A stretch of 64,000 nt of DNA from an uncultured Eubacteriales bacterium (GCA_900545495.1 UQZJ01000001.1:22727-86726), one strand, 5' to 3'; shown: positions 10,656 through 14,473, numbered from the stretch's first letter. A program made the numbers and translations. Notes: generated by a model not told the origin, from the letters alone.

Positions 10656-11669
10656 CTATCCCAGCCGGGCCACTGCCGCCTCCGCAAAGCTGTTGTCCAC
10701 CAGCTGTTCAAAGTCCACCCAGTCGGATCTTTGCAGCTCGCCGGCCTCGGTCATCACCGTCTCCAGCCGCTCCAGCGCGGACTGCTGCATCATGGGTACG
10801 GTGTTCCACGCGTCGATCTGCCGGTGGCGGGCGGTGACGGCCTCCAGCACGTCGAGGGCCGTGTCGGGGAACTGCTCGCAGATGGCCTCCGCCACCTCCC
10901 GGTCGGTGTGCTCAGTGATCCACCGCTGCGCCCGGGCAATGGCGTTAGCGAAGCCCTGCACCACGTCGGGGTGGGCCTCCATATAGCTCTGGCTGGCAAA
11001 ATAGGCGGTATAGGGGATCTCGCCGGACTCCTCCCCGATGGAACAGAGGACATAGCCGTGTCCGGCCCGCTCCACCTCGGTGGCAGTGGGCTCAAACAGC
11101 GTCACATAGTCCCCCTGCCCGCCGGTAAAGGCGCCTGCCATCATGTTGAACTGCACGGAGGTGTCCACCACCGCGTCCACCTGCGGAACGACGCCGTTCT
11201 GCTTCATCACATACTCCAGCGTCATCTCCGGCACGCCGCCCTTGCGGCCGCCGATGACCGTACAGCCCCGCAGATCGTCCCACGAGAAGCTGCCGCCGGT
11301 GCGTCCCACCAGAAACGAGCCGTCCCGCTTGGTGAGCTGGGCGAAGATCACCGGGTGATCGTCCTTGCCCTGGTTATAAATGTAGATGCAGCTCTCCGGC
11401 CCTGCCAAGCCGATATCGGCGCTGCCGGACACCACGGCGGTCATGACCTTATCCGCGCCGCCGCCGTTGGTCAGCTCCACCTCCAGTCCCTCGTCGGCAA
11501 AGAACCCCTGCTTCATGGCCACATACTGCGGCGCATAGAATACGGAGTGGGTCACCTCGTTGAGCCGGACGGTGACGGACGCGGCCTGCTCTCCGCCGCT
11601 GCCGCAGCCGGTGAGCAGCACCGGCAGCAGCAGGGCGGCGAGACAGAAAAATGTCAGCAGTTTCTTCAT
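10656..11669 (-). CDS. ABC transporter substrate-binding lipoprotein (NMT1/THI5 - SsuA/TauA family)
   Basis: Lipoprotein signal MKKLLTFFCLAALLLPVLLTGC. The start codon overlaps the permease stop (ATGA). The long upstream in-frame extension in the ORF track is spurious because it overlaps the permease gene. Confidence 0.8.
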   Translation of the reverse strand: MKKLLTFFCLAALLLPVLLTGCGSGGEQAASVTVRLNEVTHSVFYAPQYVAMKQGFFADEGLEVELTNGGGADKVMTAVVSGSADIGLAGPESCIYIYNQGKDDHPVIFAQLTKRDGSFLVGRTGGSFSWDDLRGCTVIGGRKGGVPEMTLEYVMKQNGVVPQVDAVVDTSVQFNMMAGAFTGGQGDYVTLFEPTATEVERAGHGYVLCSIGEESGEIPYTAYFASQSYMEAHPDVVQGFANAIARAQRWITEHTDREVAEAICEQFPDTALDVLEAVTARHRQIDAWNTVPMMQQSALERLETVMTEAGELQRSDWVDFEQLVDNSFAEAAVARLG

Positions 11670-12481
11670 GCTCGTACCCCCCAATAATGATTCAAAAATT
11701 TTTCTCCCCGCAGCACCAGCAGGTACATCAGCACCGCCGCAGCCGCCAGGATCAGCACGCTGGTCATCACCAGATCCATGTTGAACACCTGCGAGCCGTA
11801 GACGATGAGATAGCCCAGACCGGCACGCGAAACAAGAAACTCGCCCATGATAACGCCCACCCACGAAAGGCCCACATTCACCTTCAGTGTGGAGAACAGG
11901 GTGGGACAGTTGGCGGGAAACACCAGCATCCACAGGATCTGACGCCGCGTGGCTCCCAGCGTGCGCATCAGGCGCACCTTCTCCGGGTCGGTGGCACGGA
12001 AGCCCGTGTACATATTCAGGATCGTCACGATCAGCGAAATGGCCAGCGTCATGGTGACGATGGCTCCCGTACCAGCGCCCATCCAGACGATGAAGATAGG
12101 CCCCAGCGCCGTTTTCGGCAGGGCGTTCAGCACCACCAGATAGGGGTCGAGGATACGCGCCGTCGTGTCCGACCACCACATCAGCACCGCCACCGCCGTA
12201 CCCAGCAGCGTTCCAACGGTGAAGCCCGCCACCGTCTCCAGACAGGACACGCCGATGTGGCGCCATAGCTGTCCGGAACGGCACAGCGACCAGAACGTGG
12301 CCGCCATGCGGCTGGGGCAGCTGACCAGAAATCCGTCGGACAGCCCGGCGCGGCAGCTCAGCTCCCAGAAGCCGAACAGCCCGACCAGCAGCGCGATCTG
12401 CCAGATGCGGATGCGGCGCTTCTGCCGCCGGACGCCGGCCAGATACGCCAGCCGGCGCGGAGACAGCGGGATATCAGCCAT
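11666..12481 (-). CDS. ABC transporter permease (BPD_transp_1; SsuC/TauC-like)
   Basis: Six TM helices with the EAA-like loop ...ATDPEKVRLMRTLGATRRQ.... Overlaps both neighbouring genes in operon fashion. Start is Met at 12481 or 12487. Confidence 0.8.
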   Translation of the reverse strand: MADIPLSPRRLAYLAGVRRQKRRIRIWQIALLVGLFGFWELSCRAGLSDGFLVSCPSRMAATFWSLCRSGQLWRHIGVSCLETVAGFTVGTLLGTAVAVLMWWSDTTARILDPYLVVLNALPKTALGPIFIVWMGAGTGAIVTMTLAISLIVTILNMYTGFRATDPEKVRLMRTLGATRRQILWMLVFPANCPTLFSTLKVNVGLSWVGVIMGEFLVSRAGLGYLIVYGSQVFNMDLVMTSVLILAAAAVLMYLLVLRGEKFLNHYWGVRA

Positions 12482-13232
12482 GCACATCCAGCTCCTTCCA
12501 TATCAGATCGAAATACCGGTGGAATTCCGGCGTATTCCGCCGCTCCAGCGGCGGCAGTCCCCGCAGCGGCCCCATATCCAGTACCGTTTTCACCACGGCG
12601 GGGCGGGCGGACAGCACCACCACCCGGTCGGACATACTCACCGCCTCCGCGATGTCGTGGGTCACCAGCAAGGCGGTCTTGCCCTCCTGTCGGATGATGC
12701 GCCAGATATCCGCCGACACCGCAAGGCGGGTCTGATAGTCCAGCGCGGAAAACGGCTCATCCAGCAGCAGGATCTCCGGATCGGTGGCCAGCGTGCGGAT
12801 CAGCGCACAACGCTGCCGCATTCCGCCGGACAGCTGGCAGGGACGCTTTTTGGCAAAGCCCGCCAGTTCATAGCGCGCCAGCAGCTCCGCCACATGGTCG
12901 TAGGCGGCGCTCCCTCTCTCTCGCTGCACCGCCAGACCCAGCGTCACGTTGTCCCAGATGCTTTTCCACTCAAACAGCTGATCCCGCTGTGGCATGAATC
13001 CCACGCGGCGGGACGGCCCTGTTACGGGTACGCCCGCTACCTCGACGGTGCCGCCGGACAGCGTCTCCAGCCCGGCGATGGCGCCCAGCAGCGTGGATTT
13101 GCCGCAGCCGGACGGCCCCACCAGGCTGACAAACTCCCCCTGCGCCACGTCAAAGGATACGTCGCGTACCGCCTCCACCTCCCCGTCGGGGGCCTGATAG
13201 CAGGCGGCAGCATGACGGAGATGTATACTCAT
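12474..13232 (-). CDS. ABC transporter ATP-binding protein (nitrate/sulfonate/bicarbonate type)
   Basis: Walker A GPSGCGKST, signature LSGGMRQR, Walker B LLLDEPFSALD, H-loop VTHD. Confidence 0.9.
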   Translation of the reverse strand: MSIHLRHAAACYQAPDGEVEAVRDVSFDVAQGEFVSLVGPSGCGKSTLLGAIAGLETLSGGTVEVAGVPVTGPSRRVGFMPQRDQLFEWKSIWDNVTLGLAVQRERGSAAYDHVAELLARYELAGFAKKRPCQLSGGMRQRCALIRTLATDPEILLLDEPFSALDYQTRLAVSADIWRIIRQEGKTALLVTHDIAEAVSMSDRVVVLSARPAVVKTVLDMGPLRGLPPLERRNTPEFHRYFDLIWKELDVHG

Positions 13233-13339
13233 TAGACCTGTGACCTCCTGTCACAAAAAATATGGAGAATCCCTCTCCGTTCCCATTCTATGCCGGACAG
13301 CGCCGGTGGTGCGTGCGCCGCAGTCACTGAAATTTTCTG

Positions 13340-13368
13340 TTGACAAATCCAGACGGCGGTGCTATAAC
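13340..13368 (+). promoter_or_regulatory. Sigma-A type promoter upstream of the cysK leader
   Basis: TTGACA (13340-13345), 17-nt spacer, TATAAC (13363-13368). Confidence 0.6.
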
Positions 13369-13417
13369 GTATTAAACCTACCAAACGGGTAGTAAATTGT
13401 CAAAAGGAGGGCATACC

Positions 13418-13504
13418 ATGGGGACGCAGCGCCGCGCAGACCATACAGACTTTCGATGTTGCGAGGGCAGCAGCTGTCCCGCACACGGGTGCGCCATACG
13501 ATAA
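13418..13504 (+). CDS. Candidate leader mini-ORF (28 codons, 4 Cys) in the cysK 5' leader
   Basis: AAAGGAGG lies 7 nt upstream of the ATG. The ORF encodes MGTQRRADHTDFRCCEGSSCPAHGCAIR. Its stop is 24 nt before the cysK RBS. No homology claim can be made. Confidence 0.3.
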   Translation: MGTQRRADHTDFRCCEGSSCPAHGCAIR

Positions 13505-13540
13505 AAGTAACGTAATGTGATACCGAAAAGGAGGATCTGT

Positions 13541-14473
13541 ATGTCCCGTATCTATACATCTGCTGACCAGCTGATCGGCCGGACGCCGCTGCTGGAGCTG
13601 ACCCATATTGAAAAGAAATTCGGCCTGAACGCCCGTATCCTCGCCAAGCTGGAGTATTTCAACCCCGGCGGCAGTGTAAAGGACCGGGTGGCGCTGGCCA
13701 TGATCGACGATGCCGAGGCCAAGGGAGCCTTGAAGCCCGGCAGCGTCATCATCGAGCCCACCTCCGGCAATACCGGCATCGGCCTTGCCTCCGTGGCGGC
13801 AGCACGGGGCTACCGCATCATCATTGTCATGCCGGAGACGATGAGCGTGGAGCGCCGCCAGCTCATGAATGCCTATGGCGCGGAGCTGGTGCTCACCGAG
13901 GGTGCCAAGGGCATGAAGGGCGCTATCGCCAAGGCCGAGGAGCTGGCTAAGGAGATCCCCGGCAGCTTCGTCCCCGGCCAATTCGTCAATCCCGCCAACC
14001 CCAAGGCGCATTTTGAGACCACCGGCCCGGAGATCTGGGCGGACACCGACGGGCAGGTGGACTATTTCGTGGCGGGCGTAGGCACCGGCGGCACCGTCAC
14101 CGGCGTGGGGCGGTATCTGAAGTCTCAAAACGCCGCCGTAAAGGTGGTGGCGGTGGAACCGAAGGCCTCCGCCGTGCTGTCCACCGGCGTGGCGGGCGCT
14201 CACAAGATCCAGGGCATCGGCGCGGGGTTCGTGCCGGAGGTGCTGGACACGGCGGTATACGACGAGATCATCGCCGTGGCGGACGAGGACGCCTTCCGGC
14301 TGGGCCGGGAGCTGGGCCGCAGCGAGGGCGTGCTGGTGGGTATCTCCTCCGGCGCGGCGCTGTGGGCGGCCATCGAGCTTGCCAAGCGCCCGGAGAACGC
14401 GGGCAAGACCATTGTGGCGCTGCTGCCGGACACCGGCGACCGTTATCTGTCCACACCGCTGTTCGCAGACTGA
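13541..14473 (+). CDS. cysK: Cysteine synthase A (O-acetylserine sulfhydrylase)
   Basis: AAAGGAGG RBS. PLP lysine region [15 protein letters not shown], and glycine loop GVGTGGT. Full-length, about 310 aa. Confidence 0.95.

Follow-up and report, generated by a model that had tools for sequence, protein, structure and literature searches.

Upstream of the cysteine synthase gene cysK, an uncultured Eubacteriales bacterium carries a short open reading frame (ORF) that, judging by its preservation in related leaders, is very probably a conserved, translated regulatory leader. The window analyzed here is the whole 64,000-nt stretch of this DNA, with coordinates counted from its first letter. On the comparisons given below, the selected unit within the ORF is a single dicodon, CGA-UGU (Arg-Cys), and not a run of Cys codons. 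Considering these comparisons together with predicted RNA folds, we think it reasonably likely that Cys-tRNA-dependent pausing at CGA-UGU unmasks the Shine-Dalgarno (SD) sequence and AUG of cysK. The promoter, the SD sequence, the ATG at 13418, and the 28-codon ORF with four Cys codons (codons 14, 15, 20, and 25) that the original prediction had described were all read from the sequence where it had placed them (Table 1); its distance of 24 nt between the ORF stop and the cysK SD sequence was counted as 25 nt, from the TAA to the core GGAGG (13530-13534). The leader ATG lies about 42 nt 3' of the predicted +1, and with such a strong SD sequence initiation would not be leaderless.

To collect relatives, CysK was used as an anchor independent of the leader, which gave 80 loci from one-genome-per-species contigs and 80 metagenome loci. 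Leaders that could be aligned as DNA were limited to L081, L001, L084, and the conspecific contigs L161-165. The leader of L081 is 95% identical to that of the window (CysK, 98%), and those of L001, an Oscillospiraceae metagenome-assembled genome (MAG) and the nearest diverged relative, and L084 are 75% and 68% identical, respectively. L001 retains the SD sequence, the ATG, and the TAA, and its ORF, MRTRPADHTDFRCCRGGCSASGHTIQ, differs by two 3-nt in-frame indels; the SD core AGGAGGG is kept in L001, L081, and L084. The ORF is also intact in the five conspecific metagenome contigs, in which a single-nucleotide polymorphism at 13447 (A>G) is synonymous and preserves a base pair. Because a tblastn search with the 28-residue leader peptide matched L001 only, so that the whole peptide is not conserved, the wider search was anchored on the nucleotide core instead.

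Of 152 distinct cysK leader zones, 56 contain this core, CGATGT, and 7 its reverse complement; the core is the fourth commonest hexamer in the zone from -170 to -40 before cysK, behind the promoter hexamers. An SD-preceded start in the CGA-TGT frame, followed by a stop before cysK, is present in 52 of the 58 distinct CGATGT leaders (ATG in 47 of these 52), compared with 5 and 8 for the other two frames. The encoded peptides have 4 to 28 residues (e.g., MKRC, MIMPGTRC, and MEAYLVFRCCKM), with Arg-Cys located 6 to 12 codons past the start. In 44 distinct peptides, no conservation is seen upstream of position -2, and the codon after CGA-UGU is UGY in 17, CGN in 15, and a stop in 8. This range of lengths and these unconserved N termini argue that the peptide itself is not the product of interest. 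The remaining sequence of the distant CGATGT leaders is unalignable, and flanks that have diverged past alignment around a dicodon that stays argue for selection. Such leaders form a widespread, apparently undescribed ORF family in gut Clostridia, extending over many uncultured Oscillospirales-type gut and rumen taxa and including the cultured Pygmaiobacter massiliensis (L044).

The choice of codons was examined in every short ORF with an SD sequence and an ATG in the cysK leaders, with any Arg codon allowed. The Arg preceding Cys was CGA in 44 of 50 cases, compared with 17 of 155 at other Arg positions, and the Cys following Arg was TGT in all 50. Both are rare codons in this genome: across eight verified genes of the window, CGA accounts for 2.5% of Arg codons and TGT for 25% of Cys codons. 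The motif TTYCGATGTYG occurs once in the window (0.07 expected). The conservation in orthologous leaders that had been suggested as a check on the mini-ORF and its Cys codons is therefore strong, both in frame (52/58) and in codon (TGT, 50/50). To call the leader Cys rich, as the original prediction did, overstates what is selected: the Cys of CGA-UGU is invariant, and across the family only Cys14, usually along with Cys15, is conserved. Short ORFs are common in DNA of 65% GC, and one might arise by chance in a GC-rich leader, but the conserved frame and dicodon, the in-frame indels of L001, and the conspecific strains refute this explanation, which we find scarcely credible.

Two side observations concern the ORF itself. 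Its final sense codon in the window is also the rare CGA, followed by UAA (AUA-CGA-UAA, 13499-13504); this terminal CGA-UAA is kept in L081, and L001 has CAA-UAA. Exceptions to the dicodon rule occur in L082 (~245-396) and L105, whose CysK proteins are 95% and 85% identical to that of the window, respectively: both carry a variant leader ORF, MKHQILFCTCATGRCRSRNAEYGDHR, with three Cys codons and Arg-Cys written as CGC-UGU, and in L105 an insertion of ~165 nt separates it from cysK.

A sister leader family precedes metY, an O-acetylhomoserine sulfhydrylase-like gene that lies upstream of cysK in the flanks of ~30 loci; many of these metY genes share the promoter/operator architecture, and metY is absent from the window. 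Sixteen distinct metY leaders encode a conserved peptide (e.g., MENYFEKLVRANFRFGRMCRCI) with the core ..FE(K/A)LVRANFRFGRMC(R)C, and its N-F-R-F-G codons vary synonymously, which indicates amino acid-level selection on this peptide. The Arg before Met is nevertheless CGA in 16 of 16 leaders (CGA-AUG). Counting Arg before either Met or Cys, CGA is used in 24 of 29 cases, compared with 2 of 33 at other Arg positions of the same peptides, where AGA or CGT is found. Many metY leaders hold both CGA-AUG and CGA-UGU, including those of two Fibrobacter MAGs (MRCRMCN.. and MKVRMCN..). As read from these leaders, the unit under selection is CGA plus the codon of a sulfur amino acid, a pattern that neither an RNA helix nor a peptide alone readily accounts for and that is expected if a ribosome waits for Cys- or Met-tRNA right after CGA. 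A search of all locus flanks for other CGA-X leader families returned those of cysK and metY only. Rfam scans of the 16 metY loci found no family over the leaders and no T-box or S-adenosylmethionine riboswitch there, and an incomplete literature search found no description of the metY peptide motif.

Some metY leaders are tandem arrangements ~200 to 350 nt upstream of metY (L032:~1218-1640 and also L025, L043, L045, and L066). Their first part is a Met/Cys-rich short ORF (e.g., MKKSGFTTIMMEMCMQFYCMCMTF..; 7 to 9 Met and 4 to 5 Cys), their second a GC-rich hairpin, CCGGGAGACUUUAUCGGAGUCUCCCGG, with a U-run that resembles a classical Met/Cys transcription attenuator, and their third the CGA-AUG/CGA-UGU short ORF.

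The metY peptide raises the question of whether the nascent chain ..F-R-C could itself arrest the ribosome in response to a small molecule in the exit tunnel, such as cysteine, sulfide, or O-acetylserine, as TnaC and SpeFL do. Consistent with such a peptide, the Phe before Arg is written as UUU in 12 and as UUC in 11 of 44 cysK leader peptides, and F-E-K-L-V-R-A-N-F-R-F-G-R-M before metY is conserved in amino acids with synonymous variation. However, cysK leaders can be as short as MKRC and MIMPGTRC, with nothing conserved beyond position -2; Arg and Cys are fixed as codons and not merely as residues; and stalling induced by the product would turn a biosynthetic gene on when that product is abundant, which is the wrong sign. 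We consider this explanation quite unlikely. Another alternative is that CGAUGU(UG) is an RNA motif for a trans-acting factor (a protein or small RNA) or part of a riboswitch-like fold, with the ORF incidental to it. Its conservation at the nucleotide level and the complementary CAACAUC(G) box before the cysK SD sequence in about one-third of members would agree with this, but the frame, SD sequence, and start are kept in 52 of 58 leaders, there is no Rfam match and no family-wide consensus structure, and the metY unit is CGA-AUG, in frame; this makes a motif of that kind highly improbable.

In the mechanism that we propose instead, transcription would begin a few bases past TATAAC, probably also gated by an Rrf2/CymR-like repressor at an element at +1, and ribosomes would load at the strong SD sequence and translate the leader ORF. 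When Cys-tRNA is plentiful, ribosomes would pass CGA-UGU and terminate at 13502-13504; codons 8 to 12 (13439-13454) could then pair with the cysK SD sequence and AUG (13530-13545), and cysK would be translated poorly. When Cys-tRNA is scarce, a ribosome holding Arg-CGA in its P site would pause over a vacant A site at UGU. The footprint of this stalled ribosome (about -15 to +15) would cover the 5' strand of the helix, leaving the cysK SD sequence and AUG free and cysK translated, while a ribosome that had reached the stop codon or departed would leave that strand uncovered. We infer the stalling, its dependence on cysteine, and the reason for the fixation of CGA. In most bacteria CGA is read by a tRNA-Arg with inosine at position 34, and UGU is read by G.U wobble. 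We suggest that the poorly decoded I:A wobble at CGA in the P site makes filling of the A site rate limiting, so that a single Cys codon suffices as a sensor.

More speculatively, CGA-X might be a modular hungry-codon amplifier that lets a lone UGU (Cys) or AUG (Met) work as an amino acid sensor, an idea that we think less likely than not. If it were right, at least two leader families of gut Clostridia might use the device, with CGA-UGU before cysK and CGA-AUG, often together with CGA-UGU, before metY. In the metY leaders, CGA-X might then act alongside the conserved nascent peptide ..LVRANFRFGRM and, in some species, a classical Met/Cys-rich attenuator located 5' of it. An amplifier of this kind, if true, would be a leader-peptide design principle not described in bacteria.

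Pairing between the stall region and the cysK start was assessed by folding. In the minimum free energy (MFE) fold computed for the window leader, 13442-13454 is base paired to 13522-13543, and RNAalifold analysis of the window, L081, L001, and L084 gave a consensus long-range helix (Table 1) in which CAUA pairs with the UAUG at the cysK start and U-to-C changes on the 5' strand turn G.U into G-C pairs. The pairing probability of the cysK SD sequence in the window is 0.96. Family-wide, 27 of 44 distinct peptides have Phe UUY or Leu CUC immediately 5' of CGA (~6% expected), and YUY plus the C of CGA is complementary to GGAG. Segments of 21 nt spanning CGAUGU pair with the 50 nt before cysK of the same leader at -10.4 kcal/mol and with those of other members at -9.4 kcal/mol (permutation P = 0.0002); pairing with the pre-cysK region is -8.4 kcal/mol for shuffled segments and -6.7 kcal/mol for other leader windows. 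When the stall footprint was forced to be single stranded, the family mean of the opening energy of the cysK ribosome binding site (RBS) fell from 6.78 to 5.35 kcal/mol, compared with 6.41 kcal/mol for control masks (Wilcoxon test, P = 8e-4). For the window, the corresponding values are 7.7, 5.6, and 8.7 kcal/mol. A drop of at least 2 kcal/mol was found in 14 of 47 leaders, compared with 2 of 47 for the mean of control masks. In about one-third of members, a CAACAUC(G) box complementary to CGAUGUUG lies 5' of the cysK SD sequence and lengthens the helix there. This box was considered as the cause of the CGAUGU invariance and rejected because only about one-third of members carry it.

Several points weigh against pausing and SD masking as the explanation. 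Masking of the SD sequence by the stall region is clear in only about one-third of members and absent in some; L001 has no opening-energy shift in the single-sequence calculation; and the stability of the whole window leader is ordinary (z = -0.44). Occlusion of the cysK SD sequence by folding, which had been proposed as a check, was predicted for the window and its closest relatives. RNAalifold analysis of 13 diverse members gave no consensus structure, because the partner strands are out of register in the MAFFT alignment, and alignment-based covariation is thus lacking across the family. One or two Cys codons make a weaker sensor than classical runs, and the invariance of CGAUGU could stem from recognition by a factor other than tRNA. 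Finally, the counts come from kin sequences that are not phylogenetically independent, so the P values are optimistic.

Regarding the output, no terminator-like site was found on the + strand between the leader ORF and cysK (13418-13540), and no U-runs were seen in the spacers of the family leaders. With no terminator in the + strand leader, classical transcription attenuation of the trp/his type is rejected. The ribosome-mediated attenuation by a Cys-codon leader that the original prediction had put forward is thus supported in its logic, with predicted masking of the SD sequence and AUG in place of a terminator, so that control would be exerted on translation initiation. The same sensor could instead act, or act in addition, by way of termination by Rho or decay of the mRNA within the untranslated spacer, an output that has been proposed for tna and once for mycobacterial cys leaders. 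Between the leader stop and the cysK SD sequence, the spacers of the family are poor in G and richer in C (A, 38%; C, 24.5%; G, 13.5%; U, 24%), as in Rho utilization (rut) sites, which is compatible with a Rho or decay contribution. SD masking is also weak in many members, and an intrinsic terminator is lacking. Most of these spacers are short, however (25 to 76 nt), a ribosome stalled upstream of the spacer would be no obvious hindrance to Rho, and transcription termination has been excluded for the mycobacterial leader Ms5788A (bioRxiv 10.1101/834739). We regard an output of this type as unlikely.

Preceding the leader, the promoter TTGACA-17-TATAAT/C is kept in 103 distinct cysK leaders; a promoter consensus scan overlooked the one in the window, which ends in TATAAC, solely because it demanded T at the final -10 position. 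An operator-like element at +1, with the family consensus AACCTAC-N6-GGTWGGT (ACCTA-N9-TAGGT), lies at a constant distance of 6 to 7 nt from the -10 hexamer in 76 of 103 distinct cysK promoters and occurs once in the window. Another copy extends over the -35 hexamer in about 20 promoters, and the element is also found 5' of metY genes. Its reading as a 5' RNA hairpin (AACCUACC..GGUAGU), which a few G.U variants had prompted, was rejected because the half-site mismatches are not RNA-like (Watson-Crick, 308; other, 133; G.U on the + strand, 9; G.U on the - strand, 6), the offset from -10 is fixed, and the second copy lies over -35. More than 90 of the 160 loci, L001 among them, have an Rrf2-family gene adjoining cysK, and the neighboring Rrf2 protein scores above the cutoff of TIGR00738 and below those of the CymR and IscR equivalog models; no Rrf2-family gene was found within the 64-kb window.

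From its position, palindromy, and synteny, the element at +1 is probably the operator of an Rrf2/CymR-like repressor, and cysK is probably under two layers of control, repressor and leader ORF. Repression of cysK by CymR/Rrf2-family regulators is known in B. subtilis and S. aureus and predicted in C. acetobutylicum (PMC3828012). The locus resembles these systems in having a palindromic site that overlaps the cysK promoter and, in many relatives, an Rrf2 gene beside cysK. It differs in that the candidate regulator of the relatives scores below the CymR and IscR cutoffs and the window has no Rrf2 gene. The remark in the original prediction that CymR control is the norm elsewhere in Firmicutes should therefore not be taken to imply its absence here. 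A repressor acting by itself would be one more alternative: translation of the leader could open the cysK RBS constitutively, by translational coupling or a helicase effect and without sensing cysteine, and the Rrf2-type operator alone would regulate. The operator-like element is indeed present, and in some cysK leaders (L086, L090, and L111) it occurs without a leader ORF, but constitutive opening would leave unexplained one invariant Cys codon behind a rare CGA and, before metY, both Met and Cys codons behind the same CGA. This possibility seems decidedly improbable to us.

Table 1. Features of the cysK leader region in the window, and leader loci of the metY family in relatives
Feature	Position	Strand	Remarks
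cysK promoter: -35 TTGACA, 17-nt spacer, -10 TATAAC	13341-13346, 13364-13369	+	Read from sequence
Operator-like element AACCTACCAAACGGGTAGTAA	13375-13395	Not assigned	Starts 6 nt past -10
Mini-ORF Shine-Dalgarno sequence AAAGGAGGG	13403-13411	+	7 nt ahead of ATG 13418
Leader ORF MGTQRRADHTDFRCCEGSSCPAHGCAIR	13418-13504	+	28 codons plus TAA (stop, 13502-13504)
Predicted masking helix, 5' strand	13439-13454	+	Leader codons 8-12 plus C of CGA; anti-SD CUUUC 13450-13454, CAUA 13442-13445; MFE, RNAalifold
Putative sensor codons CGA-UGU-UGC (Arg13-Cys14-Cys15)	13454-13462	+	Proposed stall with CGA in P site, UGU in A site
Predicted masking helix, 3' strand	13530-13545	+	cysK SD GGAGG (13530-13534) through AUG (13541-13543); MFE, RNAalifold
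cysK, O-acetylserine sulfhydrylase/cysteine synthase A	13541-14473	+	Proposed regulated gene; Pfam PALP and NCBIfam TIGR01139
metY leader loci	L014:1527-1705, L122:525-708, L040:1001-1187, L146, L036, L042, L159, L061		L146 on minus strand
Further metY leader loci	L025, L032, L043, L045, L066, L050, L059, L068

The assignment of cysK rests on a score of 454 bits against the TIGR01139 equivalog model (cutoff, 351). Divergent from it, an operon on the minus strand (12474-13232, 11666-12487, and 10656-~11690) encodes an ATP-binding cassette (ABC) transporter of the Ssu/Tau/nitrate type, with all specific matches below cutoff. No tRNA genes were found within the window. A minus-strand TTGACA at 13397-13402, the inverted repeat of 13341-13346, is followed 17 nt further on by TAGGTT and might have been a promoter of the divergent ABC operon sharing the operator; this reading was rejected because the TTGACA is not conserved in L001 or L084. 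Next to the ABC ATPase start, a 65-nt stretch 5' of it on the minus strand (13233-13297) shows almost 100% identity among the window, L081, and L001 and only slightly less in L084, compared with ~75% for the remainder of the intergenic region. On the minus strand it contains a possible -10 hexamer, TAGAAT, and then a terminator-like hairpin, GGAGAGGGAUUCUCC, with U6 (13278-13264), followed by a second hairpin, GUGAC-AGGAGG-GUCAC, with the transporter SD sequence in its loop. Rfam had no match to this stretch.

Known RNA regulators were sought with Rfam on both strands of 12800-14000, and no family matched at E ≤ 10, which bears out the earlier statement that the region has no T-box. Similarly, the T-box covariance model had no match in 12800-14000 (E ≤ 10) or in 20 related cysK loci, and in those 20 loci no Rfam family covered the leaders. 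A tetrahydrofolate riboswitch and a T-box leader, unrelated to cysK regulation, were detected in locus flanks (L104:1576-1669 and L040:165-420, both on the minus strand), which indicates that the Rfam scans were working.

The accepted view of Firmicutes is that T-boxes, riboswitches, and repressors control amino acid genes, with leader-peptide sensing considered uncommon. The finding here is a leader-peptide family before cysK, with a sister family before metY, in many uncultured gut and rumen Clostridia, whose supply of sulfur amino acids shapes H2S production and host interaction. Its unusual trait is that a lone Cys codon behind a fixed, rare CGA stands in for the runs of codons customary elsewhere. 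This gives a testable hypothesis on codon-pair effects in bacterial decoding and a compact, portable part for amino acid-responsive switches, and it adds unannotated functional small ORFs to genome annotation.

The leader-peptide logic itself is not new, being known in mycobacteria, including before cysK1, and predicted before cysS in Rhodobacterales. The original prediction had stated that no such leader is established for cysK in Firmicutes. Our literature search, which was incomplete, found no description of a cysK or metY leader peptide in Clostridia or other Firmicutes, in agreement with that statement, but Cys-codon leaders are established in mycobacteria. Leader ORFs with Cys codons were predicted in Actinobacteria in 2005 (PMC1262725). 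In M. smegmatis, Cys leaders were shown to attenuate translation in response to cysteine (Canestrari et al., bioRxiv 10.1101/834739); the Cys tract of Ms5788A is predicted to pair with the downstream SD sequence, which a stall at low Cys-tRNA is proposed to expose, and Rv2334A precedes cysK1-cysE in M. tuberculosis (bioRxiv 10.1101/834739). The cysK leader shares with these a short Cys-codon ORF before cysteine genes and the predicted pairing of the Cys-codon region with the downstream SD sequence; in the window, the strand predicted to pair with the SD sequence and AUG reaches as far as the C that opens CGA-UGU. Leaderless initiation (5' AUG/GUG) and a C-terminal series of Cys codons characterize the mycobacterial ORFs, whereas the clostridial leader is SD led, with a ~40-nt 5' untranslated region, one invariant Cys (one or two at the core), and a fixed CGA, and there is no apparent sequence homology. 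A C-terminal polycysteine run is not present: a second Cys follows the invariant one in 17 of 44 peptides, and some leaders end in R-C-stop.

An upstream ORF of the terminator type, uORFC-8-2, is predicted before cysS in Rhodobacterales and was proposed to sense Cys-tRNA (RNA Biol 2021, PMC8632094). It has two tandem Cys codons, usually at positions 14 and 15, matching the ORF of the window. In contrast to the cysK leader, which lacks a terminator, has an invariant UGU, and stands before cysK in Clostridia, this alphaproteobacterial element has two stems, the tandem Cys codons lying in the first, a terminator with a terminal U-run, mostly UGC codons, and cysS as its gene (PMC8632094). For the decoding step, the nearest parallel is the inhibitory CGA-X pairs of yeast, at which paused ribosomes keep the A site vacant and elongation partly recovers when more tRNA is supplied (Tesina et al., bioRxiv 10.1101/755652). 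There too, a CGA read by I:A wobble and a second codon slow elongation, which is the behavior that a one-codon tRNA sensor would need. The yeast case is, however, eukaryotic and concerns detrimental stalls rather than a regulatory device, and the effect is hypothetical for bacterial ribosomes.

With trpL, hisL, leuL, pheL, and thrL, the cysK leader would have in common a translated leader, codons matched to the pathway, and a ribosome position that is read, here by prediction, via alternative RNA pairing. Unlike those attenuators, it has no terminator/antiterminator pair and no run of regulatory codons, and its output would be translation initiation. In this last respect it resembles the leaders of ermC, cat, and cmlA, in which ribosome stalling within a short leader ORF opens a hairpin that sequesters the downstream SD sequence, as is proposed here. 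The trigger there is an antibiotic together with the nascent peptide, whereas before cysK it would presumably be an empty A site at a hungry Cys codon.

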